NCBI GenBank assembly: GCA_963422205.2
Contig: CAXMWX010000005.1
Span: forward strand, 640,001 to 704,000
Source of the DNA: Gammaproteobacteria bacterium
Lineage (GTDB): Bacteria > Pseudomonadota > Gammaproteobacteria > Eutrophobiales > Eutrophobiaceae
Length of the DNA: 64,000 bases
Direction of reading: 5' to 3'
Numbering within the stretch: position 1 is the first letter of the stretch; every line of letters starts with the position of its first letter. The position numbers and the translations under genes are program-made. A model generated the notes under the pieces. The model made no database searches. It saw nothing but the letters and a program-made list of their open reading frames with translations, and had not been told where the DNA came from. Below are positions 11,098 to 63,905 of the stretch, piece by piece.

Positions 11098-12461
11098 ATG
11101 CTGGAGATAAAAGAGACTCCTTATTGCTATGAAGAATCCCAACAGTCTGGATTCCAAGAACTGGCCGACAGGGTTCAACACCTAAGAGACAGCGGAGAAC
11201 TGTCACCGGACAGCCTTTATCGGATCCGCCGTTTCTTCCGAATGAAGAATATCTACCATTCAAACGCCATTGAAGGCAACCTGCTGGATGTGGGTGAAAC
11301 CCGGCAGGTGGTTGAACACGGATTAACCCTCGCCGGCAAGCCGTTAAAAGACCAGGCAGAAGCGCGCAATCTCTCTGATGCCATCGATTTTCTGGAGGAT
11401 CTGGCGGCAGGGGACAGCCCGATCACAGAGCATGATCTCCGGCAAATTCACCATCTGGTTTTGAAGGGAATCAACGATGAGGAGGCTGGAAGCTACCGCA
11501 AAGTGCCGGTTGAAATCTCAGGGTCTGACTACACGCCTCCTCGACCTGAGTCGATCCCGATTGAGATGGCAGCGCTGTCCTCCTGGCTTGCAGATGTGAG
11601 CATAGCGGGCGATGACTATGCTACTCTGAAAGGTCTCCTGGTAGCCGCCGCTGCCCATACCTGGTTCGTTACCACTCATCCTTTTATTGATGGTAATGGC
11701 CGGGTTGCGCGGCTGCTGATGAATCTGTTGCTGATGAGATACGGCTTTCCTATCGGGATCATCACCAAGGAAGACCGGCTTCGCTACTACGATGCGCTGG
11801 AGGAGTCACAAGCCTCGGACTTGACCGCATTTTTAATCCTGCTCGCCGAGTGCATTCACGAAAGCCTGGAGGAGTATGAAAAGGCGGCGGCAGAGCAGCA
11901 GGAACAGACCGAATGGGCGGCATCTCTCGCCCAAAAATTCACCGAGCCAGAACGTGTTCATGCGTACAATGCGTATGAAATCTGGCGCGACGCCATGAAC
12001 GTCCTGAAAAGTTACTTCCGCCAGACGGCCACTACCTTGAACGAGCAAGCAGACTTCGGAAAGATATATTTCAAGGACTTCGGGCAGCTGGAATTTGAGA
12101 AATACGCCATGCTTTGTGCAGGAAAATCGGCAAAAAAACCTGGTTTCTCCGGGTTGATTTCATACGGGGGGATCGCACCGCCCGCTATCTTCTGTTCTTT
12201 GGCTATGGCAGCCATCACTTAAAGAGCAAATGTAAAGTCACCCTGTGGGTAGCCCGGGAGGAACCCGCCGGATCGTTTTACTACGAGCCTACCGACAGGA
12301 TCACCGCCCCCAATGTGCCCGCACTTGCCGAAGTCGGTTATGACATAGCCGGGGAGTGTTTCATAGCCAGAAACATCGATAACAACACATCCAGCCGCCC
12401 TGTGGAGACCATAGGCAGAACATTCTTTGAGGAGATTGTCGCCAGGCATTTCTCCAACTAG
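11098..12461 (+). CDS. Class II Fic-domain protein with uncharacterised C-terminal domain (frameshift at A7 run 12132-12138)
   Basis: Inhibitory motif SNAIEGN and catalytic HPFIDGNGRVAR. Adding one A joins ORF 11098-12222 to the 12114-12461 frame (SAKKTWFLRVDF...), giving about 454 aa. Confidence 0.85.
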
Positions 12462-18335: not shown

Positions 18336-18367
18336 GTCATAATTTTTTTCGGGCAGCAATCTACCAT

Positions 18368-18403
18368 CAGGCAGCCCAGATCACACCTGATCTGGGCTGC
18401 CTG
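18368..18403. repeat. Perfect 16-bp inverted repeat between pilC and pilD
   Basis: CAGGCAGCCCAGATCA-cacc-TGATCTGGGCTGCCTG; no U-tract on either side. Confidence 0.85.
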
Positions 18404-18432
18404 TCCCTGCCACTTCACCTCAGCCCTGATCC

Positions 18433-19317
18433 ATGCAGTTCATTGAATTGCTACAAAGCTCCCCTGGATTTTTCTATGTGGCGGTTGGCCTGCTTGGATT
18501 GGTTATCGGCAGTTTCTTGAATGTCGTCATTGTGCGCCTGCCGGTGATGATGGAGAGAGACTGGCGCCGTGATTGTTGCAGCTTCCTGAAAATTGACGAC
18601 AACAACCAAGACCAGGATGAGCGGTTTAACCTGTTGCACCCTCCGTCACAATGCCCGGTTTGTCACCAGCCCATTGCTCTGTTGGAGAACATCCCCCTGC
18701 TCAGTTATTTTTTTCTTGCTGGCAAGTGTGCAACATGCCAGGCCAGCATCTCTTTACGTTATCCCCTGGTGGAGTTACTGACTTGCCTGCTGACATTGGT
18801 GGTTGCCTTGCACTTCGGGGCGAGGGTGGAGACACTTTTTGCGTGCCTGCTGGTGTGGGCCTTGATCGCATTAAGCTTCATCGACCTTGACAAACAGCTA
18901 TTGCCTGATGAGATCACCTTGCCACTCTTATGGTCAGGTATCCTCTGCAACCTGTTCGGGATATTCGAGCAAACCCTGAAGGTGAATCTCCACACCAGCA
19001 TCATCGGCTGTATCATCGGCTACCTTATCTTATGGGGTGTGTTTCATGTATTCCGGATCATCACCGGCAAGGAAGGCATGGGCTACGGCGACTTCAAACT
19101 GCTGGCCGCACTGGGGGCCTGGTTAGGCTGGCCGTATATCCCTGGCATCATCTTGTTGTCCTCTGCCACTGGTGCGCTTGTTGGCATCGCCATGATCCTC
19201 TGCCGTCATCACACACGAGAAACACCCATCCCCTTCGGCCCGTACCTTGCGCTTGCCGGTTTTATCAACCTCATCTGGGGACCGAAGATTCTGTCTTTGA
19301 CCGTCAACCTGTCATGA
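18433..19317 (+). CDS. pilD: Prepilin peptidase/N-methyltransferase PilD
   Basis: GSFLNVVI.RLP, two CxxC motifs, FIDLDKQLLPD, GMGYGDFKL, PFGPYLA. Confidence 0.95.
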   Translation: MQFIELLQSSPGFFYVAVGLLGLVIGSFLNVVIVRLPVMMERDWRRDCCSFLKIDDNNQDQDERFNLLHPPSQCPVCHQPIALLENIPLLSYFFLAGKCATCQASISLRYPLVELLTCLLTLVVALHFGARVETLFACLLVWALIALSFIDLDKQLLPDEITLPLLWSGILCNLFGIFEQTLKVNLHTSIIGCIIGYLILWGVFHVFRIITGKEGMGYGDFKLLAALGAWLGWPYIPGIILLSSATGALVGIAMILCRHHTRETPIPFGPYLALAGFINLIWGPKILSLTVNLS

Positions 19318-19916
19318 CCGGCTTGCTGAAAGTTGGACTCACGGGCGGTATCGGCAGCGGCAAAACGACTGTCACCGCCTTGTTCGCTGATTGCGGTGCG
19401 CCCTGTATTGATGCCGATCGAATATCACACGCCGTCACCGAGCCAGACCAGCCCGGTTATGATGGTATCATCGCCTTATTCGGCACCGGCGTCATAGCCG
19501 CTGATGGACGCCTGGACAGACGCAAGATAAGAGACATTGTTTTTCGTGATGATGTGCTGAAGACCAAGTTGGAAAACGTGATTCATCCCCTGGTCAAGGC
19601 CGCCATTGGCGAGTTGACAGGACAAGTGAAATACAAATACTGCATAATCAGCATCCCGCTGTTACTGGAAACAGAGACCAGCGCCGAGGTGGATCGGGTG
19701 CTGGTGGTCGATCTGCCCGAGGACTTGCAGATACTGCGTGCCTGCAACAGAGATAATGCAACAACACAAAGCATAAAAAATATTATCAAGGCGCAAATAC
19801 CCAGAGAGCAACGCCTGACGAGCGCCGATGATGTGATACACAATACCAGGGATTTCAGCTTTCTTAGGCAACAGGTGGAAGTTCTGCACGAGAAATATCT
19901 TCAGTTAGCTGAATGA
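19314..19916 (+). CDS. coaE: Dephospho-CoA kinase
   Basis: ATGA overlap with the pilD stop; VGLTGGIGSGKTT, IDAD, LDR, IHP, IPLL.E. Confidence 0.95.
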   Translation: MTGLLKVGLTGGIGSGKTTVTALFADCGAPCIDADRISHAVTEPDQPGYDGIIALFGTGVIAADGRLDRRKIRDIVFRDDVLKTKLENVIHPLVKAAIGELTGQVKYKYCIISIPLLLETETSAEVDRVLVVDLPEDLQILRACNRDNATTQSIKNIIKAQIPREQRLTSADDVIHNTRDFSFLRQQVEVLHEKYLQLAE

Positions 19917-44906: not shown

Positions 44907-45272
44907 GTGGGGAGCCAGCCGATAAGCCGGGTTCTGTCGAGGACAATCATCCATCTTAGGATGTATGTCACCATACACCTCCAGCAGCCTACCCGGGGAC
45001 AATGCAGGCGGCATTATCGTCCCTCTATTTGGCCTTGCTCCGGATGGGGTTTACCTTGCCAATACTGTTACCAGTGTTGCGGTGCGCTCTTACCGCACCT
45101 TTTCACCCTTACCCGCCATCCCTGCCGATAAGTCGGGAGATGATGGCGGGCGGTCTGTTTTCTGTGGCACTGGCCGTCGGCTCACGCCGCCCAGGCGTTA
45201 CCTGGCACCCTGCCTTGTGGAGCCCGGACTTTCCTCTGTATCACTACAGCGATTGCCTGGCTGGCTCCCCGC
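44907..45272 (-). ncRNA. rnpB: RNase P RNA, bacterial type A
   Basis: GAGGAAAGTCCGGGCTCC, AGTGCCACAGAAA, GGTAAACCCC, ACAGAACCCGGCTTA; P1 closes (GGGGAGCCAGCC/GGCTGGCTCCCC); P6 AGGC/GCCU pairing; downstream of rsmI. Confidence 0.97.
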
Positions 45273-45321
45273 TTTGGTCACACTTGCCAGCTTACAAACA
45301 AAACCCCCTCATGGCTACGGC

Positions 45322-46170
45322 TCAAGGCGCCCTGCTGCGTATGGTCAGGGCAAGCGCATAGACCTGATTTTTGTTTGCACCGGTGATCTCACAAGTCAAT
45401 TCTACCACATCACGCAGAGACAACGACTCCGGCAGCAAGGTAATGATGCGTATCAACTCATCCGTATCCGTCCTGGTAACAGCCGCCCCGGCCACGATCA
45501 CCACAAATTCCCCGCGCTGGTGATCCGGGTTTGAAGCCAGCCAGATCATGAGCTCGGCCAGATCGGCCTTTCTCACCTGTTCGAATTTTTTTGTCAACTC
45601 CCGCCCCAGCATGGCCTTGCGGTCTGGCCCGAACACCGCCTTAGCCGCCGCCAGAAAATCAGCGATTCGGTGGGGGGCTTCGTAAAAAACCAGGGTTCGG
45701 GTTTCATGCTGCAATGCCTGCAAGGCCCTTAGCCCTGGGGCCTTGCGTGGTGGCAGAAAACCGGCAAAAACAAAGCTGCTGGCCGCCATCCCGGAAATCG
45801 ACAAGGCAGCCACCAGGGCACAGGGGCCCGGGATGACATGCACGGTCAGCGCATGGTCATGGGCCTGGCTGATAAGGAAGCTGCCGGGATCGCTAACCAG
45901 CGGCGTGCCCGCATCACACACCAGTGCCACATCCTGCCCGGAGCGCAGGCTGTTGATGATGCTGGCCGTTTTTGTACGCTCATTATGCTCATGGAAGGAG
46001 CGCATCGGCGTAGTCACGCCCAACTGCTGCATCAGCCTGCCCGTGTGTCTGGTATCCTCGGCCAAAATAAACCCCACCCGCCTCAAGGTGGCAATCGCCC
46101 GGGCACTGATATCATCGAGATTGCCGATGGGTGTGGCGATGACATACAGTGTTCCACTGTCAGCAGGCAT
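45322..46170 (-). CDS. rsmI: 16S rRNA Cm1402 2'-O-methyltransferase
   Basis: LYVIATPIGNL.D, AEDTR, DAGTP.VSDPG, YEAPHR, RELTK, GEFVV. Confidence 0.96.
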   Translation of the reverse strand: MPADSGTLYVIATPIGNLDDISARAIATLRRVGFILAEDTRHTGRLMQQLGVTTPMRSFHEHNERTKTASIINSLRSGQDVALVCDAGTPLVSDPGSFLISQAHDHALTVHVIPGPCALVAALSISGMAASSFVFAGFLPPRKAPGLRALQALQHETRTLVFYEAPHRIADFLAAAKAVFGPDRKAMLGRELTKKFEQVRKADLAELMIWLASNPDHQRGEFVVIVAGAAVTRTDTDELIRIITLLPESLSLRDVVELTCEITGANKNQVYALALTIRSRAP

Positions 46171-46228: not shown

Positions 46229-48093
46229 ATGCGTTATATCGTCATGATACTCATTGCCGGGGCCTTGTCAGGCGGCTGCAACACACAAACCACCAAGACG
46301 GGTGCGGTGGTTGAGCCAGCGGCAACGGCAAAACAACTCATGGCCAATGATGACTATGCCGCCGCTGCACAGGCGTACCTCAAGCTCGCCAAGAGAGATA
46401 AAAAAAATGCCGGATACTATCAACTGCGTGCCGCCGATTGCCTGGTTGTCAGCCAATGAAAATCAGCCGTGCTGAGGAGATTATCGATTGCGGTTCACAC
46501 CGAAAACAAGATGATGTTTCGGACGGCCCTACCTGAAAACGCCTGCTACAGGGAAAAAGCGGCGCTGTAATCAGAAATCAGCCCAAAACACGCCTTGAAA
46601 ACTGTTTGGCCACAGGAAAACCGCCGGGGCGAGGTTTGCGCTGGATATTGCCGCACAAAACCTATCTGCTGAGGGGCGCAGTCCTATGCGCTGCTGGCAG
46701 AGTATCTGGCAAACAGTCCAGGGAGCGATTTGCAGTAATCAAGGCTACCTCCATCAACCGGAGGCAATCAGACAAAATGCCGCTGCCATCTGGTCGGCAT
46801 TGAATCAGCTGGATACGGCGACATTGCAGGGGTTAAGAGCTAACAGCCCAACCGGGTTGAAAAGCTGGATCGAACTCGCCTTGATTCACAAGACGCTGAT
46901 CAGCAATCCGGCGGTGTTAAGGAAAAGCCTGTTATCCTGGCAGCAGGCCCACCCTGAACATGCCGCCAGTCCACAGATCATCGACAAGTTATTACAACTC
47001 AGTCGGCAATCTGCCCGGCAACCGCAGCAGCTCGCCCTGTTATTACCGCTCACCGGGCAATACCGCAAAGCGGCCGAGGCCATCAGGGGACGGCTTCCTG
47101 GCGGCCTGGTACCATAGCAAGACCTATCGACCCGCCATCAGGATCTACAGCGCTGATGCGATTAACATCAGGGATGTGTATAACAACGCCGTCATGGAAG
47201 GGGCGGATTTTATTATCGGCCCCCTGGAAAAAAACAGGCGGTTGTCCAGCTGATAGAATCGGGGCAGCCTGCCAATTACCACGCAGACCTTAAACCAAGT
47301 AGACCTGGTAGCCGAAGATAATACGGGCCTGCTGCCTAACCTGATTCAGTTCGGGCTGGCACCAGAGGATGAGGCCAGGCAGGCGGCCGAGCGATCTTTT
47401 TTTGATGGGCATAACAAAGCCCTGGTGCTGACACCGCAAAACGGCTGGGGGAGGCGCATGGCGGCAGCATTCAAACACGCCTGGCAGGAAACCGGCGGAC
47501 ACGTGCTGGAGGAGATTCACTTTCCGATAAACAACGGTGACTTCGCCAACCCGGTAAAACGACTGTTAAATATTGACAGCAGCGAACGCCGGGCAAAAAA
47601 ATTACAACAGATAATAAACCGCAGAATACAACGTGAAGCACGCTTACGGCAGGATGCAGACATGATCTTCCTAGCCGCCCCGCCGCTGTATGCACGACAA
47701 CTGTTGCCACAGTTCAGGTTTCACAAGGCCGACTCCCTGCCGGTGTATTCGACTTCGCATATCTTCTCCGGCATTGTAAACCCTGAAATCGATGCTGACA
47801 TGGACGGCATCAGATTCACCGATATCCCCTGGGTATTATCTGAAGATACGGATGTTTTGAAAGACAAGATCAACCGCAACTGGCGGGCAGAAAAATCACC
47901 TTACCGACGGCTGTATGCGCTGGGCATAGACAGCTTCAACCTGATCCCTCACCTGTCCAGACTGGCGCTTGAACCTGCCGCCACCTATGCCGGGCAAACA
48001 GGCATCTTATCCATGACCGATGATGGCCTGATACAAAGACGGCTGTTGTGGGGCAGAATTAAAGCCGGCAGGCCGCATTTGCTGGCCGATTAA
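46229..48093 (+). CDS. lpoA: Penicillin-binding protein activator LpoA (LppC family), broken by many indels
   Basis: Lipoprotein-like N-terminus (MRYIV...SGGC); fragments WQQAHPEHAA, LALLLPLTG, DGFLAA, IIGPLEK, YSTSH, RLYALGIDS, GQTG.L in different frames; between rsmI and yraN. Confidence 0.8.
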
Positions 48094-55216: not shown

Positions 55217-56274
55217 ATGAGCAGGCTCTGGAGTCCGGCAGTGAGGAGGCTGACACCCTATACAGCCGGCGAACAACCGCAGGATGATGGCGGTATTAAA
55301 TTAAACAGCAACGAAAACCCGTGGCCACCCTCGCCGCTGGTGATTGCACGCCTGAAACAGGCGATGGATACAGGTTTGCAGCGTTACCCTGATCCAGACA
55401 GCAGGGCGTTACGGGAGAAGCTGGCCGCCTACCATGATCTCTCGCCTGAGAATATCTTTGTCGGCAACGGCTCAGATGAGGTGCTGGCACATGCGTTCAA
55501 GGCATTTTTTCAACAGCCGCTGCCTATCTATTTCCCGGACATAAGTTACAGTTTCTATCCGGTATTCTGCCAGTATTTTGCGATCAATTACCGGACACTG
55601 GCGGTGAATGCGGCGTTGCAAATCGAACCAGAGGCGTACCCGGAAAAAAACGGCGGGGTGATTTTCCCCAACCCGAACGCCCCTACCGGACACTATCTTG
55701 ACACCGAGAGGCTGGTGGGGTTACTGGAGCGCAACACAGATTCTGTCATCATTATTGATGAGGCGTATATCGACTTTGCCCCACAATCCGCACTGCCCTT
55801 GTGCAGGCAATTTAACAATCTGCTGATCACGCAAACGCTGTCAAAATCCCGCTCCCTGGCAGGTATGCGTATCGGTTTTGCCGCGGGCGATCGAAAGCTC
55901 ATCACCGCACTACAGCGGGTGAAAAATTCTTTTAACTCCTATCCGCTGGACCGGCTGGCGAGCATCGCCGCCATAGCGGCTTATGAGGATGAGGCGTATT
56001 TTCGCCAGCGTTGCCATCACATTATTCAGACCCGGGACTGGACAATGACACAATTAACACAACTGGGTTTTAACGTTCGCCCGTCACACGCCAACTTCAT
56101 CCTTGCCCAGCCGCGGGCTTGAGCGCAAAGGATTACTACCTGGCACTGAAAGCGCTGGGGATCCTGGTACGTTATTTTGACAACGAGCGCATCAACAACT
56201 ATGTGCGGATAACCATCGGCACACCCGAGCAGATGCAGACACTGATTACCGCCAGCCAGCAGGTGCTAAGTTAA
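55217..56274 (+). CDS. hisC: Histidinol-phosphate aminotransferase (1-nt deletion near 56113)
   Basis: KLNSNENP, YPD, GNGSDE, NPNAPTG, DEAYIDF, TLSKSRSLAGMRIG; the other frame continues ILVRYF...VRITIGT to TAA at 56272-56274. Confidence 0.9.
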
Positions 56275-56374: not shown

Positions 56375-57679
56375 TCAGTCTTTGGTGATTCTCAATGCCG
56401 CCGCACCCGCATGGGCAAATAACCCCTCGGCCCTGGCTACCAGCACCGCCGTACCGGCAAGCCGGGATGCAGAACTCTTGCTGCATTTTATGAGTGAGGT
56501 GCGCTTCTGAAAATCATATACCCCCAGCGGCGATGAGAAACGGGCGGTCCTGCCCGTGGGCAAGACATGATTCGGGCCGGCGCAGTAATCACCCAGAACC
56601 TCAGCAGCATAATGCCCCAGAAACATCGCCCCGGCATGGCGTATGTTCCCTGCCAGCCTGTCAGGGTCGGCAACCGCCAACTGCAAATGCTCCGGGGCGA
56701 TCTGATTGGCCACCTGTGCCGCCATCTCCAGGTCGGCCACCTGAATCAAGGCGCCGTTATTCTCAAGTGAGGCCACAATCACAGCCCGCCGGGGCATGGT
56801 CACTAACCGCTGGTCAATGCACTGCTGCACGTTATCAATGATAGCGGCATCCGTGCTGATCAGAATCGCTCTGGCGTCCTCATCGTGCTCGGCCTGGGCA
56901 AGCAAATCCATCGCCAGCCAGTCCGGATCAGCACTGGCATCCGCAATGATGACCACCTCTGATGGCCCGGCGATCATATCAATCCCCACCATGCCAAATA
57001 CCAGCCGCTTCGCTGTCGCCACATAATGATTCCCGGGGCCGACGATCTTGTCAACCGCCGGCACTGTGGCAGTACCAAACGCCAGTGCCGCCACCGCCTG
57101 TGCGCCGCCGATGGAGAAACCATAATCCACGCCAGCAATATGTGCCGCCGCCAGTACTACGGGATTCAACTCCCCTTGCCGTGCCGGCACCACCATCACG
57201 ACCTCATCCACACCAGCCACCCTGGCCGGTACGGTATTCATGATGACCGAGGAGGGATAGGCCGCTTTACCACCAGGGACATAGATACCGACTTTGTCCA
57301 TAGCCATCATCTGCTGACCTAACACCGAGCCATCGGCATCCTCATAGCGCCAGGATTGCTGTCGCTGATGCTCATGGTAGGCAGATACCCGGTCATTGGC
57401 TTGTTGCAGAGCGGCGCGCAATTCTGCCGGTATCTTATCAGCAGCCTCAGCCATCGCCTCTGCCGAGATCCGAATATCGTCAATCGTCACCTTGCGTTGA
57501 TCAAGGCGCCGGGTATAATCCAGCAAGGCCACATCGCCCCTCTCCTGCACATCCTTGAGAATCGTGGTCACCGTTTTAGTTATCTCCGGGTCAAGCCACT
57601 GATTGCAGGCAAACAGCCCCTGTAACTGCTGATCGAAATCAGCATCGGTGTGCGTCAGTCGTTGCAACGCCAGCATCAA
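56375..57679 (-). CDS. hisD: Histidinol dehydrogenase
   Basis: YVPGGKA.YPSSV, GGAQA, GPGN, DMIAGPSE, QAEHD, APEHL, GPNHVLPT. Confidence 0.97.
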   Translation of the reverse strand: MMLALQRLTHTDADFDQQLQGLFACNQWLDPEITKTVTTILKDVQERGDVALLDYTRRLDQRKVTIDDIRISAEAMAEAADKIPAELRAALQQANDRVSAYHEHQRQQSWRYEDADGSVLGQQMMAMDKVGIYVPGGKAAYPSSVIMNTVPARVAGVDEVVMVVPARQGELNPVVLAAAHIAGVDYGFSIGGAQAVAALAFGTATVPAVDKIVGPGNHYVATAKRLVFGMVGIDMIAGPSEVVIIADASADPDWLAMDLLAQAEHDEDARAILISTDAAIIDNVQQCIDQRLVTMPRRAVIVASLENNGALIQVADLEMAAQVANQIAPEHLQLAVADPDRLAGNIRHAGAMFLGHYAAEVLGDYCAGPNHVLPTGRTARFSSPLGVYDFQKRTSLIKCSKSSASRLAGTAVLVARAEGLFAHAGAAALRITKD

Positions 57680-58305
57680 TCAATCACCTCCTCTAACGCC
57701 TTTAGCAAAGGAGCAATCGCATCATGCTTCATCTTCATGGCGGCTTTGTTGACGATCAACCGGGAGCTGATTGCAGCGATCGTGGCCAGCGGCACCAGAT
57801 CATTCGCCGCCAGGGTATTGCCGGTATCGACCAGATCGACAATCTGATCGGCCAGGCCCAGCAAGGGTGCCAACTCCATGGCGCCATACAGCTTAATGAT
57901 CTCTACCTGCCTGCCCTGCCGGGCAAAATATTTTCTCGTCGTTGTTACATATTTGGTCGCTATCTTCAAGCGGCCGTTAGTGACAGACCTGTCCTTCGGG
58001 CCAGCCAGCACCAGCCGACATTGGGCAATCTTCAGATCAACCGGCTCATAGACATGTTCACTCGGATTCTCCAGTAACACATCCCGGCCGGCGATGCCGA
58101 GATCAGCACCGCCTTTTTCAACATAGGTCGGGACATCGGCGGCACGCACAATCACCAGGGTGATATCTGGCCGGTTGGTTGCCAAAATCAGCCGTCGCGG
58201 CGCCCCTGGATCGTCCACCGGGCGAATGGCAATCCTCTCCAGCAAGGGCAGGGAGTCTTCCAGTATGCGCCCTTTGGAAATGGCGATGGTGATAGGTTGT
58301 GTCAT
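57676..58305 (-). CDS. hisG: ATP phosphoribosyltransferase, short form (HisZ-dependent)
   Basis: IAISKGRI, DVPTYV, IATKY, KLYG.MELAP, IVDLVDTGNTL; 209 aa with no C-terminal regulatory domain. Confidence 0.95.
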   Translation of the reverse strand: MTQPITIAISKGRILEDSLPLLERIAIRPVDDPGAPRRLILATNRPDITLVIVRAADVPTYVEKGGADLGIAGRDVLLENPSEHVYEPVDLKIAQCRLVLAGPKDRSVTNGRLKIATKYVTTTRKYFARQGRQVEIIKLYGAMELAPLLGLADQIVDLVDTGNTLAANDLVPLATIAAISSRLIVNKAAMKMKHDAIAPLLKALEEVID

Positions 58306-58332: not shown

Positions 58333-59604
<1,272 letters not shown>

Positions 59605-59859
59605 CTAGCCTAATCGCAGGGATTTTTTCTCCTCCCACTGCCGAGGGGTAAAGGTCTGCATGGACAAGGCATGTATCTCCTGACCCATTTTATCGCCCAA
59701 GGCGGCATAGACGATCTGGTGTTGCTGCACCCTGGACTTGCCGGCAAATTGCTCGCTGACAATCACGGCATCGAAATGGGTCCCATCATCACTCTGCACG
59801 TCAGCCACACAGCCGGGAATGGCGGCCACGAGCATTGCTTCAATGTCATTGGTCTGCAT
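59605..59859 (-). CDS. ibaG: BolA-family protein (IbaG-like)
   Basis: DGTHF, F.GKSRVQQHQ.VY..L, IHALS; immediately upstream of murA. Confidence 0.88.
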   Translation of the reverse strand: MQTNDIEAMLVAAIPGCVADVQSDDGTHFDAVIVSEQFAGKSRVQQHQIVYAALGDKMGQEIHALSMQTFTPRQWEEKKSLRLG

Positions 59860-59992
59860 GTGTATTCACCTTAGGAAATGGATGGGAAAGTCAGCCCCCC
59901 AGGATAGCGCATCGGATAGCACATCATCATCCCAATCCCCAGGCGGTTAGCGGGAGATGATGCCGGAATTGCGAAGAGAAATTTCAGTAAAA

Positions 59993-60637
59993 CTAATCGA
60001 GCACGGTCTTGGCCAGATTTGCGTTTTTCTCGACCAGCTTCTGGATTAACGAATCAATGCCGTTATTGTTTACCTCCGAGGCGAATGACTGCCGATAGGT
60101 CTTGACCAGATTCACGCCCTGAAATGCCACATTGATCACCCGCCAGTTGCCCGCACTTGGATGCAGCCAGTAATCCACCGGGGTTGCCAGGCCACCGTTA
60201 GCCGAGATGATCTCGGTCTTCACCTTGACGATGCTGGAATTCGGGTTGGAGATGGTTTCGACATAGTTAATGGTCTCATCTGAGTAACCCAGCAGGGCCT
60301 TGGCATAGGTACGCACCAACAGGCTGGTGAACTGACTGGTAAAATCGGCATGTTGTTGGGCCGAGCTGTTTTTCCAAGTGTTTTTACCTAACACGGCCTT
60401 CGACATAAACTCAAAATCAAAGTTGGGCAGGATCAACTCATCAATAACATCATAGATCTTCTCAGGCTGGGCAGCCAGCAGGCCCTGCTCCCGCTTCACA
60501 CGCTCAATAACCCCCTGCACCGTCCCGGTAACGACTTCATGAGGTTCTCTGGCATGCGGCTCTTCGACGGCCGCCAGGGGCGCAGCCGCTATTAAGGATA
60601 TGGACAACAGGGTCACTATCACGGCCCGAACATTCAT
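59993..60637 (-). CDS. mlaC: MlaC/Ttg2D (HpnM-like) periplasmic lipid-binding protein
   Basis: Signal peptide; P.FDF..MS..VLG..W, F..LLVRTY, VDY, WRV.NV..GV.LV..YR.SF, GID.LI..L. Confidence 0.85.
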   Translation of the reverse strand: MNVRAVIVTLLSISLIAAAPLAAVEEPHAREPHEVVTGTVQGVIERVKREQGLLAAQPEKIYDVIDELILPNFDFEFMSKAVLGKNTWKNSSAQQHADFTSQFTSLLVRTYAKALLGYSDETINYVETISNPNSSIVKVKTEIISANGGLATPVDYWLHPSAGNWRVINVAFQGVNLVKTYRQSFASEVNNNGIDSLIQKLVEKNANLAKTVLD

Positions 60638-60809
60638 AGTCTATACTCTCCTTGGGGTTAAAAACGCCAATGCCACGGCTAACGGGTGGGCATTTTACCG
60701 ATAGACATGGCATCAAGACAAGCGTTTCCGGCATAAAAGTTCCGCCCAAAGCGCACCATGCCGACTGCATCTATAACCATCATCAGCAGATACTTTGCAA
60801 ACCTCAGGA

Positions 60810-63305
60810 TCAAAATGGCCGCCAAAGCAGGAGCAGCCGGGGTAACAGGGTCAGGGCGGCCAGCAAGGCAATAAACATGGCCAGGGCGGTCAGCAGGCCG
60901 AAGTAAATCGTCGGAATAAAGTTCGACATCACCAGGATAGAGAAACCGATAATGATGGTAATAGCGGTGTAGAAAACCGCCCGACCGATATTGGCATGGC
61001 AGTAGTACATGGTTTTGACATAGTCCTGCCGCTTGCCGTATTCCTCTCTGAAACGATAGATATAATGGATGCTGTTATCAACGGCGATGCCGATGGTGAT
61101 GGCGGCAATGGTGATTGTCATCATATCCAGCGGGATATTAAGCAGGCCCATCAGCCCAAGGATGATCGCCGCCGCCAGCATGTTCGGAATGATACCGATG
61201 ATCGCCAGGGAGATGGAGCGGAACAAGATAACCAGCATCAAGGCGATACCCGCCATGACCAGGCCTAAGGTTTCGATTTGTGATGAGAACAGGCTCTGCA
61301 ACATGTTATTGTACAACACCATCATGCCACTGATTTGAAACTCATCCGGCCCCAAGCCAAGTTCATGTTCAAGATCATAACGTATCTGCTCCAGCAGTTG
61401 TTTACGCCTGAGATCAGGCAGGGAATCCAGTATACGCAGGCTGATCCGTGCTTCATTATTCTCAATGGAGATATAGGGCGTAATGGTGCTGGCCTTGATC
61501 TCATCCGGCATCTTTTTATTGATGACACCTAACTCAAAGGCATCAAAGGCCACGCCTTCGTTTAACTCTTCGGCCAATCGCAACACATTCGCCAGCGACT
61601 GCACCTTGCCCACCGCTTCAAGCCCGTCAAGGTAATCATGCACGGACTTAATGCGATCGATCTTAAATTCCGTAAACCAGGCATCGGCCGGGTCTTCAGG
61701 CTCCTCATCGAACGTGCCAAACAAATCATCTATATCGGAGAACTCATCATCACCACCCTCTGCTGGCTGTGCATCGACAACAGCAGGCCGATGCTCTGAG
61801 TCAAAGTTGATGATGATATCCAGCGGTGTCGTACCGCCCAGCTTCTCATCGATAATTTTCAGGCCCTGGTAGATTTCCGTATCCTTGCTGAAATAATTAA
61901 TAAAACTGTTCTCCACGATCAAACGGCTTATCCCGTAAGCACTGACAACAGCCAGCAGCAGGGCGGCCACCAGCACTTTATTGCCGTGTCTCTCGGTCAG
62001 ACCTGCCAGCACCGCGGTGAACGGCACGGTTTCACTCTCATGCACTTTGGTCTGTTTATCAAACAGGGCCAGCACCGCGGGAAAAACAATAAACGAGGTC
62101 AGGAAGATAACCGCCAGCCCAAGGGTCATCATCCAGCCAAAATCAATCACCGGTTTGATATCGCTGACCACCAGGGAGCCAAAACCTATCATGGTGGTCA
62201 ATGCGGTATACAGGCAAGGCAGGGCCATTTTCTGCGTGGTGTTCAAGACCAGCTGATGTTGCGACATGTCGGGAAAATCACGGCACAACTGGCGGTAACG
62301 CACGATCAGATGCACATTCATGGACATGGTCAAGATCAGCATCAACGAAATAAAATTCGATGAGATGACCGTCACCGGCCGGCCAGCCAGCCCCAGAATA
62401 CCCAGCATGACAGTCACAGCGAACAGGCAGCTTAACAGCGGCAGCAAGACAAATCGGGGCTGGCGAAACACGATCGACAACATGAACACCAAAAAGACAA
62501 ACACACCGGCACCAAACATCGCCAGATCATTTTTAATGAAGGTGATCATGTCATCGGCGATCATCGGTACGCCGCCAAGATAAAGCTCGCCAGAACTTTG
62601 ATAGCGCGCAATGATCGCCCTTATCTGCTCAATATTGCTGTGATTCTCCTTGTCCGCCTGTTGTTTTAATTCATTGTATTGCAGCAGGATATCCGGCAAC
62701 TCGCTGTGCTCTGCCGCCGTCAAACCGTCAAGATTGCGCTTGATCAGCAAGCTGTTTTTCTTTTTCTGTAATTCTGCGAACTCCTCTCTCGGCCGCAGAT
62801 TGATCAACAAGGCGGTGGCATCGCCAGCAGCACTGATGATCAGATCCTTAAAGATCGGGCTGGTGATTAATTCCTCTCTGGCCTTGCCCCTGTCAACAGT
62901 CGGGTCATCCAGCGTGCGGTAGTTCTCAACAATCTCAGACAAGCTGCCACCGACTATCTTCACCAGCGGCACATCCAGCAGGGAGACCACGGACTCGACA
63001 TGGTCCAGCTGGCTTAACTCCTCTCTCAAGCTGGCGATGACATGCAGCGATTCTGGCGAGAACAGATCCGCATCCGGCACAAAGACCACAAACAAAAATT
63101 CCCGGGTGTCATAACGCTCGTTCAAATCTCGAAAAACCCGCAGATCATCATCGCTTTCCAGGATCAGCGAATCTGCCGAGGCATCCAGCCGAAAGTGCTG
63201 GCCGAAATAGGCCATGCTGGCAAATAGCAACACCACCACAAACAAGGTGAGCGTCGGCCTGATGAGAATAATGCGGGCGTAAATTTCAGCAAGGCGGGTC
63301 GGCAT
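60810..63305 (-). CDS. MMPL-family RND inner-membrane transporter
   Basis: Two halves, each with one TM, a large periplasmic loop and about five TMs; LDASADSL, GVPMI..D, TT.IGFGSL, LGGTTPLD, GIAVDNSIHY, GFSILV.S.F.P...FG.LT. Confidence 0.88.
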   Translation of the reverse strand: MPTRLAEIYARIILIRPTLTLFVVVLLFASMAYFGQHFRLDASADSLILESDDDLRVFRDLNERYDTREFLFVVFVPDADLFSPESLHVIASLREELSQLDHVESVVSLLDVPLVKIVGGSLSEIVENYRTLDDPTVDRGKAREELITSPIFKDLIISAAGDATALLINLRPREEFAELQKKKNSLLIKRNLDGLTAAEHSELPDILLQYNELKQQADKENHSNIEQIRAIIARYQSSGELYLGGVPMIADDMITFIKNDLAMFGAGVFVFLVFMLSIVFRQPRFVLLPLLSCLFAVTVMLGILGLAGRPVTVISSNFISLMLILTMSMNVHLIVRYRQLCRDFPDMSQHQLVLNTTQKMALPCLYTALTTMIGFGSLVVSDIKPVIDFGWMMTLGLAVIFLTSFIVFPAVLALFDKQTKVHESETVPFTAVLAGLTERHGNKVLVAALLLAVVSAYGISRLIVENSFINYFSKDTEIYQGLKIIDEKLGGTTPLDIIINFDSEHRPAVVDAQPAEGGDDEFSDIDDLFGTFDEEPEDPADAWFTEFKIDRIKSVHDYLDGLEAVGKVQSLANVLRLAEELNEGVAFDAFELGVINKKMPDEIKASTITPYISIENNEARISLRILDSLPDLRRKQLLEQIRYDLEHELGLGPDEFQISGMMVLYNNMLQSLFSSQIETLGLVMAGIALMLVILFRSISLAIIGIIPNMLAAAIILGLMGLLNIPLDMMTITIAAITIGIAVDNSIHYIYRFREEYGKRQDYVKTMYYCHANIGRAVFYTAITIIIGFSILVMSNFIPTIYFGLLTALAMFIALLAALTLLPRLLLLWRPF

Positions 63306-63403
63306 AATGGCTGTCTCTAACTATCATCAGCGACATCGGGGGAACGTGCCTGACAGTTTTTGTTTCTCAAAGTACAGTTATTTTTCTTAACATGGCGCTT
63401 GTA

Positions 63404-63418
63404 TGATAAACTTTATCG
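63404..63418. promoter_or_regulatory. AT-rich palindrome, possible Fur-family operator
   Basis: tGATAAA-c-TTTATCg in the divergent MMPL/DUF4399 promoter region; 11 of 14 match to TGATAATnATTATCA. Confidence 0.35.
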
Positions 63419-63461
63419 TGAAAAAATTAAATTTAACATTAAGCTCAAGATCAAGTCACTG

Positions 63462-63905
63462 ATGATATATCACACGCTGCTCCGTGTTGCCCTGCTGCTG
63501 CTCTTGCCCGCCAGCCTGACAAATAGCCTGGCAGATAGCACGGCAGGAGCGGGGCGTCCGGCCCCGGCAGAGGCAGCCGTGTATTTTATCTCGCCTGTGG
63601 ATGGTGCCATCGTAACCAGTCCGGTACTTATCCAGTTCGGACTGAAAAACATGGGCATCGCCCCGGCCGGCATACAGATGCCGGAGACCGGGCATCACCA
63701 CCTGCTGATCAACACCCCCCTGCCTGCACTCAACCAACCGATACCCAGCGATGATAAACACCGTCACTTTGGCAAGGGTCAGACGGAGGCTGGCATCGAA
63801 CTGCCCCCCGGTGAACACCGGCTACAGCTCCTGTTGGGCGATTTCGCCCACATACCGCACACCCCGCCGGTCATGTCCGAGGTGATCACTATTACGGTGG
63901 AATAA
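63462..63905 (+). CDS. DUF4399 secreted His-rich protein
   Basis: Signal peptide from MIYHTLL; VYFISP.DG, FGL..M, TGHHHLLI, HFGKGQTE, LPPGEH.LQLLLGD..H.PH. Confidence 0.85.
   Translation: MIYHTLLRVALLLLLPASLTNSLADSTAGAGRPAPAEAAVYFISPVDGAIVTSPVLIQFGLKNMGIAPAGIQMPETGHHHLLINTPLPALNQPIPSDDKHRHFGKGQTEAGIELPPGEHRLQLLLGDFAHIPHTPPVMSEVITITVE

Follow-up and report, generated by a model that had tools for sequence, protein, structure and literature searches.

The locus described here lies in a gammaproteobacterial genome of the Eutrophobiales lineage (GenBank assembly GCA_963422205.2, contig CAXMWX010000005.1, positions 640,001 to 704,000) and combines a gene for a transporter of the resistance-nodulation-division (RND) type with mlaC, which encodes the soluble shuttle of the Mla lipid transport system. 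The whole stretch of 64,000 nucleotides is called the window, and positions are counted from its first letter. Six genes follow each other on the minus strand. The first is the MMPL/RND transporter gene (60810–63305; 831 aa), whose product matches Pfam MMPL PF03176 in two stretches with 112.5 bits (cut-off 20.5). After a spacer of 172 bp (60638–60809) it is followed by mlaC (59993–60637; 214 aa; Pfam MlaC PF05494, 167 bits, cut-off 26) and a bolA/ibaG homologue (59605–59859; 84 aa; Pfam BolA, 70.9 bits), which is a conserved neighbour downstream of the mla operon. Then come murA (58333–59589; TIGR01072, 595.6 bits, cut-off 392.7), hisG (57676–58305) and hisD (56375–57679), the latter two identified by Pfam/NCBIfam matches. 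An earlier note on this DNA had listed the same co-oriented genes and the same 172-bp gap; the minus-strand open reading frames (ORFs) and their family matches bear this out.

The earlier note had also stated that mlaF, mlaE and mlaD are missing upstream of mlaC and that mlaB would not fit before bolA, and both statements hold. None of mlaF, mlaE, mlaD, mlaB and mlaA was found when all 58 non-overlapping window ORFs of at least 80 aa were compared with Pfam or NCBIfam. Searches of the window ORFs of at least 50 aa by phmmer and hidden Markov models (HMMs), seeded with E. coli K-12 MlaA to MlaF, gave matches confined to the six-gene cluster. The spacer between mlaC and bolA measures 133 bp and is thus too short for the 97-aa MlaB. 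The partners of mlaC in a canonical Mla locus, mlaF, mlaE, mlaD and mlaB, are therefore absent here, and no mlaA adjoins the pair as it would in an operon of the mlaA-mlaC-RND type.

Relatives of the RND protein are abundant. In a search with the window protein all 8000 of the 8000 scored candidates had E values ≤ 0.001, which implies thousands of relatives, and the 119 relatives listed are 62–75% identical to it over essentially the full length. When one genome of each GTDB species was scanned with two peptide patterns and an alignment of 31 family members, at least 588 stretches matched, and at least 578 of these were confirmed as relatives. The survey below uses the 80 best loci, with flanks of up to 10 kb. 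The source genome is absent from these 80, the closest locus being L001 with 75% identity on a contig of 3.7 kb. In a plasmid collection no member of this RND family was found, the best tblastn matches being 19–25% identical. From the 80 loci and the window, 7,385 ORFs of at least 50 aa were searched with E. coli MlaA to MlaF, IbaG and MurA and with the window proteins, including one HMM iteration.

This survey, of the kind proposed in the earlier note, shows that the linkage of the RND family to mlaC is far beyond chance. An MlaC gene directly adjoins the RND gene in 42 of the 80 loci: downstream on the same strand in 28, upstream on the same strand in 10 and convergent in 4. Where at least 1 kb is available on both sides, the fraction is 33 of 58; this takes in L047, which has a run of N in its RND ORF, full flanks and no MlaC, and the filter without it gave 33 of 57. 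The linked loci carry the phylum labels Pseudomonadota, Thermodesulfobacteriota, Myxococcota and Nitrospirota. The order of the window, RND>mlaC>bolA, recurs in 22 loci, with murA next in 21 of them and hisG after it in 11. In 15 of the 42 linked loci mlaA is present as well, in the orders mlaA-mlaC-RND, mlaC-RND-mlaA or RND/mlaC/mlaA. Five loci are of an mlaC-only kind; three of them run out less than 900 bp from the RND gene, and the contig of a fourth, L053, begins within the RND gene. Pfam confirmed the assignments in the samples taken (MlaA 5 of 5, with 219–259 bits; MlaC 7 of 7). The spacing of the two genes in the relatives ranges from −148 to 351 bp, with an overlap in 4 of the 42 pairs and a gap of 0–30 bp in 12.

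The ABC (ATP-binding cassette) components do not share this linkage. Across the 7,385 ORFs, that is, within at most 10 kb of the RND gene in the 80 loci and in the window, there were no matches to MlaE, none to MlaB and a single weak one to MlaD (L062, 74 bits). As a control, the E. coli MlaE seed detected the protein in 6 of 6 loci that had been chosen for having MlaE, down to 33% identity. In the closest relative, L001, a YhgA-like transposase gene (L001:3035–3694, plus strand; Pfam 78.8 bits) follows the RND gene in place of mlaC, and the contig ends thereafter, which points to a possible disruption or rearrangement in that genome.

At the level of the locus, the RND gene replaces mlaFED, and mlaB with it, in the lineage of the window and in other gammaproteobacterial lineages. 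The usual order given in the earlier note, mlaF-E-D-C-B-ibaG-murA, was confirmed in three reference loci. In E. coli K-12 (L081) murA-ibaG-mlaBCDEF is divergent from yrbG-kdsDC-lptCAB. Legionella adelaidensis (L089) has lptB-lptA-lptC-kdsC-kdsD on one side and mlaF-E-D-C-B-bolA-murA on the other, and Aeromonas likewise has the canonical arrangement with ibaG at the same place. In an Acidiferrobacteraceae locus (L009) and a Thioglobus/SUP05 locus (L020), a divergent arm rpoN-lptB-lptA-lptC-kdsD is followed by a DUF72-like ORF and then by RND-mlaC-bolA-murA. Since both flanks are kept in comparison with Legionella and E. coli, the RND gene stands at the place of mlaFED. The gene mlaB is gone in all 23 cases with this order (22 loci and the window), the gap between mlaC and bolA being 7–287 bp. 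The replacement inside the core Mla locus that the earlier note had postulated is thus borne out positionally.

The clade of the window has its upstream side rearranged to secDF, pdxB, purN, gloA and DUF4399. In the window itself a divergent gene for a DUF4399 protein (63360–63905, plus strand; Pfam 129.5 bits) lies upstream of the RND gene, and the window stops there, 695 bp upstream of the RND gene. We regard this gene as context outside the module; it occupies the same position in only 2 of the 80 related loci (L004 and L028). The downstream side, mlaC-bolA-murA-hisG, corresponds to the order that follows the mla genes in Pseudomonas. A third gammaproteobacterial group (L050, L057 and L068) has hisG-murA divergent from RND/mlaC/mlaA.

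Two further observations were made at this site. In the Acidiferrobacteraceae/SUP05-type loci a conserved ORF of 217–241 aa lies between kdsD and the RND gene, on the strand of the latter (L009:9166–9891, L012:9327–9980, L020:9333–9989, L024:9276–10001 and L027:9268–9924). Its match to DUF72 is weak (20–28 bits) and above the cut-off only in L027; the ORF may be co-transcribed with the RND gene. In the alphaproteobacterial loci L059, L060, L030, L033, L026 and L047 the RND gene is flanked either by alr and a radA-like gene or by dnaB and cvpA. In Azospirillum (L086, NZ_CP029834.1) mlaE-mlaF directly follow dnaB-alr, so that, judged by this one comparator, the alphaproteobacterial loci may be a second independent case of an RND gene at an Mla ABC site.

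The RND protein belongs to a conserved family apart from HpnN, MmpL3 and BstA, with an MmpL/HpnN/NPC1-like fold. Its best NCBIfam model is HAE3 (TIGR00921) with 203.2 bits, below the subfamily cut-off of 351.9. An identity as HpnN was rejected (NF052374, 90 bits against a cut-off of 1100; TIGR03480, 117.8 against 751.85); for comparison, the genuine HpnN proteins of Cupriavidus CH34 and B. cenocepacia reached 1305 and 1381. BstA was rejected likewise (NF045600, 42 bits against 1400). By sequence, the nearest solved structures are HpnN (6wu0, 39.8 bits) and MmpL3 (about 26 bits). In a FastTree phylogeny that also included two HpnN proteins, the 72 family members form a compact group, to which HpnN is connected by a branch of 3.27 substitutions per site.

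The AlphaFold model of the protein (mean predicted local distance difference test, pLDDT, 76.4; predicted template-modelling score, pTM, 0.66) has twelve long helices in a 1+5/1+5 layout; one large periplasmic domain follows helix 1 and a second one helix 7. The best fold in the PDB according to Foldseek is MmpL5 (9dp6_A, E 1.4e-24, template-modelling (TM) scores 0.68/0.76), with MmpL4 alongside. Further fold matches are HpnN, MmpL3 and NPC1/NPC1L1/Patched; across MmpL3/4/5, HpnN and NPC1 the TM scores are 0.63–0.69. His332 in helix 4 and Thr730 and His747 in helix 10 are invariant in all 72 members, and position 743 in helix 10 is Asp in 66 and Glu in 6. Asp743, His332 and His747 may thus form a family-specific proton relay. 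The model also contains a confident helical hairpin (residues 174–233; helices 174–192 and 197–233; pLDDT of the block 79–88; DNA about 62607–62786) that protrudes from the first periplasmic domain and is poorly conserved in sequence. In the model it could be a docking or reach element.

The mlaC product of the window is a normal MlaC-fold protein. The Pfam match spans profile positions 3–165 of 166, and the hydrophobic N-terminus ends in ...AAAPLAA, as a signal peptide without a lipobox cysteine. Its relatives in the PDB are MlaC/Ttg2D proteins with 59–85 bits, among them 2qgu (84.7 bits), Ttg2D (6hsy, 80.7 bits) and MlaC (8oj4, 72.6 bits). A tree of 51 MlaC proteins was calculated with IQ-TREE from 43 RND-linked, four MlaFED-linked and two HpnN-linked proteins and two orphans; A. 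baumannii MlaC was excluded because it is split over two frames in its record. The window protein falls within a clade of 13 RND-linked proteins, all from loci with the order RND>mlaC>bolA (support 96/91). The proteins of Acidiferrobacteraceae/SUP05 loci with this order form a second clade (100/99). The trees of RND and MlaC share the window clade, the Acidiferrobacteraceae/SUP05 clade, the gammaproteobacterial mlaA clade and the delta clades, as expected if both genes are inherited together.

A complex of RND residues 15–831 and MlaC residues 32–214, which the earlier note had proposed to predict, scored 0.39 (0.39, 0.43 and 0.38 in the individual runs), while the best of three controls scored 0.00. 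The runs agreed in at least 84% of the contacts, and the partner pLDDT was at least 72. In the benchmark, 116 of 157 solved complexes attained the mark, as did 2 of 215 mismatched pairs; these counts hold only roughly here because own alignments were used. Scores of up to 0.60 were obtained for only 18 of the 157 solved complexes and for both of the passing mismatches. The complex thus passed weakly; the prediction weakly supports a contact between RND and MlaC and nudges its odds upward, no more.

The best reading of the locus, which we hold to be rather probable, is a two-part lipid transfer system in which a proton-driven RND transporter and periplasmic MlaC exchange a membrane lipid. The 12-helix RND protein, a transporter of the inner membrane, would draw on the proton gradient through the buried network of Asp743, His332 and His747. 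With this energy a membrane lipid would pass between the outer leaflet of that membrane and the periplasmic domains of the RND protein. The transporter would exchange the lipid directly with soluble MlaC, which would carry it across the periplasm. An outer-membrane lipoprotein of the MlaA type would complete the route, encoded next door as in the 15 loci with mlaA, or elsewhere; in the organism of the window mlaA is presumably unlinked, as in E. coli. We infer a physical hand-off, proton coupling and independence from the ABC transporter, and likewise the substrate and the direction. As to the substrate, we lean towards a glycerophospholipid rather than a hopanoid, because the RND genes have core envelope genes (lpt, kds, murA) as neighbours and the family occurs in SUP05 and Pelagibacteraceae, groups that are not known for hopanoids. 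As to the direction, export from the inner membrane via MlaC to the outer membrane appears slightly favoured over import, since the bacterial lipid RNDs characterised so far are exporters.

The alternative that survives best is that RND and MlaC are merely neighbours. MlaC would then serve a canonical MlaFEDB complex encoded elsewhere, and the RND protein would export solvents, hydrophobic metabolites or another lipid, its gene having landed beside mlaC when the mla operon broke up. Several results weigh on this side and against a joint system. The RND gene has no adjoining mlaC in 38 of the 80 loci, 13 of them truncated by the contig and 25 with unrelated neighbours such as alr/radA, dnaB/cvpA or MCP genes; hence the RND protein needs no mlaC in cis. 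These loci include members from Marinobacter, Granulosicoccaceae, Alphaproteobacteria and Pelagibacteraceae. No alternative partner emerged from them, as Pfam searches with 39 flanking ORFs from 29 loci gave unrelated genes only. In the window, the pair is separated by the 172-bp spacer with a weak sigma-70-like site (60721–60692, 9 of 12 matches), so that the two genes need not be co-transcribed. A weak terminator-like hairpin (60838–60817) lies within the 3' end of the RND gene, and an AGGAG motif stands 8 nt ahead of the ATG of mlaC. The numbers of promoter-like sites (9 against 4.3 ± 2.3 expected) and terminator-like sites (6 against 3.6 ± 2.0) are near background.

On the same side, there is no sign that the RND-linked MlaC proteins are a specialised lineage. 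The MlaFED-linked MlaC of Legionella nests among them (87/60), the deep nodes of the tree are weak (89/78 and 87/60), and the four MlaFED-linked controls are not monophyletic, two of them being long-branched. The mlaC gene at the locus may be a remnant from the loss of mlaFED, or it may have been imported along with the RND gene. The complex prediction, a weak pass, returned no interface. The direction of transport is also affected: import is kept open by the precedent of NPC2 and NPC1, in which the same fold can take a lipid from a soluble carrier into the membrane. Finally, the genome data searched comprise 64 kb of the source genome, in which the contig with this RND protein alone has 836,315 bases. 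MlaFEDB may be encoded elsewhere in it, as in C. jejuni, where mlaFED lies in a separate operon according to a preprint (bioRxiv 10.64898/2026.08.28.747810).

Nevertheless, we consider mere neighbourhood unlikely. An adjacency in 42 of 80 loci, in three gene orders and several phyla and with mlaA in 15 of them, is hard to explain without a shared function. The overlapping and closely spaced gene pairs in the relatives, the congruent clades of the RND and MlaC trees and a complex score above controls of 0.00 also speak against it. For the preferred reading, a proton-driven exchange of lipid between RND and MlaC, a further step can be considered: MlaFEDB may have been lost genome-wide in several gammaproteobacterial lineages, including the Eutrophobiales-like clade of the window, Acidiferrobacteraceae and SUP05/Thioglobus, with MlaC (together with MlaA) powered by protons through this RND family. 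This step is tentative and in our view has considerably less than an even chance of being correct.

Much less likely is an export of hopanoids or other polycyclic isoprenoids, instead of phospholipids, in the manner of HpnN and HpnM. This idea can draw on HpnN being the best sequence match in the PDB, on a Pfam Sterol-sensing match of the RND protein (26.9 bits) and on the scores of the window MlaC, which are 102.6 bits with the HpnM model TIGR03481 and 78 bits with the E. coli-type MlaC model NF011697, both below their cut-offs of 160.1 and 195. We rejected a typing of the protein by this order of scores. The order is uninformative, because the MlaFED-linked MlaC of Legionella shows it too (79.6 against 75.1 bits) and the HpnN-adjacent proteins reach only 83 and 69 bits. 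Against the idea stand the RND scores far under the HpnN cut-offs, which true HpnN proteins exceed, the long HpnN branch in the RND tree and the position of the window MlaC outside the Burkholderiales HpnM clade. Moreover, no hopanoid gene (shc, hpn) was found among the 58 window ORFs by Pfam/NCBIfam, and the RND family is present in metagenome-assembled genomes of SUP05 and Pelagibacteraceae, which are not known for hopanoids.

There is next to no probability that an error of assembly brought the two genes together, or that their neighbourhood is a recent rearrangement private to this lineage and without function. RND>mlaC>bolA recurs in 22 other loci of independent assemblies, with murA next in 21 of them, which contradicts a misassembly at 60638–60809, the event that the earlier note had named as a possible refutation. 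Closed chromosomes with the order RND>mlaC>bolA>murA are OZ000552.1, OZ271833.1, OZ244890.1, JAYQJO010000001.1 and JAYPQE010000003.1. Both ORFs are intact and of full length. On the other side, the base-level quality of the window is imperfect, as shown by apparent frameshifts in hisC and lpoA/LppC.

The first of these genes, hisC (55217–56274, plus strand), looks frameshifted. Its ORF stops at 56122, corresponding to position 296 of the 349-position HisC profile, and a typical HisC C-terminus is encoded further on in a different frame, which ends with the stop codon 56272–56274; either a base-calling indel or a pseudogene would account for this. The second, lpoA/LppC (46250–48093, plus strand), lies between rsmI and yraN and is split over several frames by at least three changes, its pieces 46686–47117 and 47425–48093 matching positions 131–239 and 352–561 of the LppC profile. 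The frame breaks in both genes suggest assembly indel errors or gene decay. Another irregularity was found at 18336–19916 (plus strand), where the coaE ORF (328 aa) is extended by about 130 residues at its N-terminus and a stretch of 600 bp after pilC is apparently non-coding. The gene pilD usually lies between pilC and coaE, and a broken pilD may be located there. An RNase P RNA of bacterial class A (44907–45268, minus strand; 336 bits) was detected between mraZ and rsmI; the ORF at 45002–45361 (plus strand) overlaps it and is probably not a gene. Between gdh and clpB a Fic/DOC-domain protein is encoded (11098–12222, plus strand; Pfam Fic, 76.5 bits); its score with the XopAC/AvrAC effector model is weak (53.8 bits, cut-off 450). 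The rest of the window is ordinary gammaproteobacterial housekeeping, with sucCD, bamD, clpB, pilBC, secA, lpxC, the dcw cluster, RNase P RNA, sspAB and petABC.

Phospholipid traffic between the membranes of Gram-negative bacteria and the direction of Mla are still argued. The RND family is widespread, being confirmed in at least 578 species-representative genomes, and is repeatedly wired to MlaC and MlaA, which suggests a second, proton-driven engine for the same shuttle. Docking of MlaC on the RND periplasmic domain can be tested, and genomes with a natural engine swap may be used to ask what MlaC carries. The family might also explain outer-membrane upkeep in ecologically dominant groups such as SUP05. 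If MlaFEDB were indeed lost genome-wide, a core envelope pathway would have exchanged its engine for a non-orthologous one in nature. Such a case would provide a handle on the direction of Mla, because in proteoliposomes the proton gradient can determine which way an RND protein works. If MlaFEDB is present elsewhere in the genome, the locus would be another case of the dual arrangement proposed for C. jejuni.

A lipid RND transporter with an MlaC-like shuttle has already been proposed, and nowhere demonstrated. In the literature searched, we found no description of an RND gene at the place of mlaFED and mlaB in the mlaC-ibaG-murA locus, be it in the clade of the window, in Acidiferrobacteraceae or in SUP05, and none that treats this RND family as a broadly conserved partner of MlaC and MlaA. 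The known systems resemble the locus in different respects. The best fold matches are MmpL3/4/5 and NPC1, that is, lipid or siderophore RNDs with small periplasmic or luminal partners such as MmpS or NPC2. The partner in the window differs, being an MlaC-fold protein, and the sequence identity to these transporters is only 11–15%. The predicted hairpin 174–233 recalls the periplasmic coiled coil of MmpL4/5. That coiled coil lies in the second periplasmic domain, whereas the hairpin of the window protein is in the first.

The HpnN-HpnM-HpnS system shares the logic of an RND transporter with an MlaC-like and an MlaA-like protein, and we confirmed the architecture of an mlaA-like gene with hpnN and an mlaC-like gene in Cupriavidus CH34 (L088) and B. 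cenocepacia (L090). HpnN also shares the overall fold (5khn_A, E 3.4e-22, TM 0.64). It differs in having Ala at position 743, and its Asp is located in helix 4, aligned with Ser328 of the window protein. A 2025 preprint (PMC12324291) puts forward the hypothesis that HpnN-HpnM-HpnS form a hopanoid route similar to Mla; for extra mlaC copies beside hpnN it refers to Tripathi et al. 2025 (Arch Microbiol 207:107). The pairing of HpnN with HpnM, drawn on as an analogy in the earlier note, therefore stands as a published hypothesis of an RND transporter with an MlaC-like shuttle. Membership in that route fails, given the HpnN cut-offs, the distance in the tree, the position of MlaC outside the HpnM clade and the lack of hopanoid context in the window.

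The locus agrees with the canonical MlaFEDB-MlaC-MlaA system in having the gene of an MlaC-family shuttle at the equivalent chromosomal position, ahead of ibaG/bolA and murA, and the SUP05/Acidiferrobacteraceae relatives even keep the divergent kdsD-lptCAB-rpoN flank. The difference lies in the engine: the locus encodes neither the ATP-driven MlaFEDB complex nor the MCE-domain MlaD ring, mlaB is gone and the RND gene is there instead. A further known system is the mlaA-mlaC-RND operon Cj1371–Cj1373 of C. jejuni, for which a preprint (bioRxiv 10.64898/2026.08.28.747810) puts forward an RND-driven Mla route as a hypothesis, with mlaFED in another operon. Here as well an MMPL-type RND gene adjoins mlaC, and a proton-driven hand-off to MlaC is hypothesised likewise. 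The C. jejuni order with tiny gaps or overlaps is seen in L063, L066, L070 and L075 of the present family. A Campylobacterota-dominated Atlas cluster is among the nearest look-alikes (score 0.99; 241 of 256 features shared), which is a lead only. In contrast to the C. jejuni operon, the window has the order RND>mlaC without an adjoining mlaA, and its pair stands at the ancestral mla-ibaG-murA site, in the place of mlaFED.

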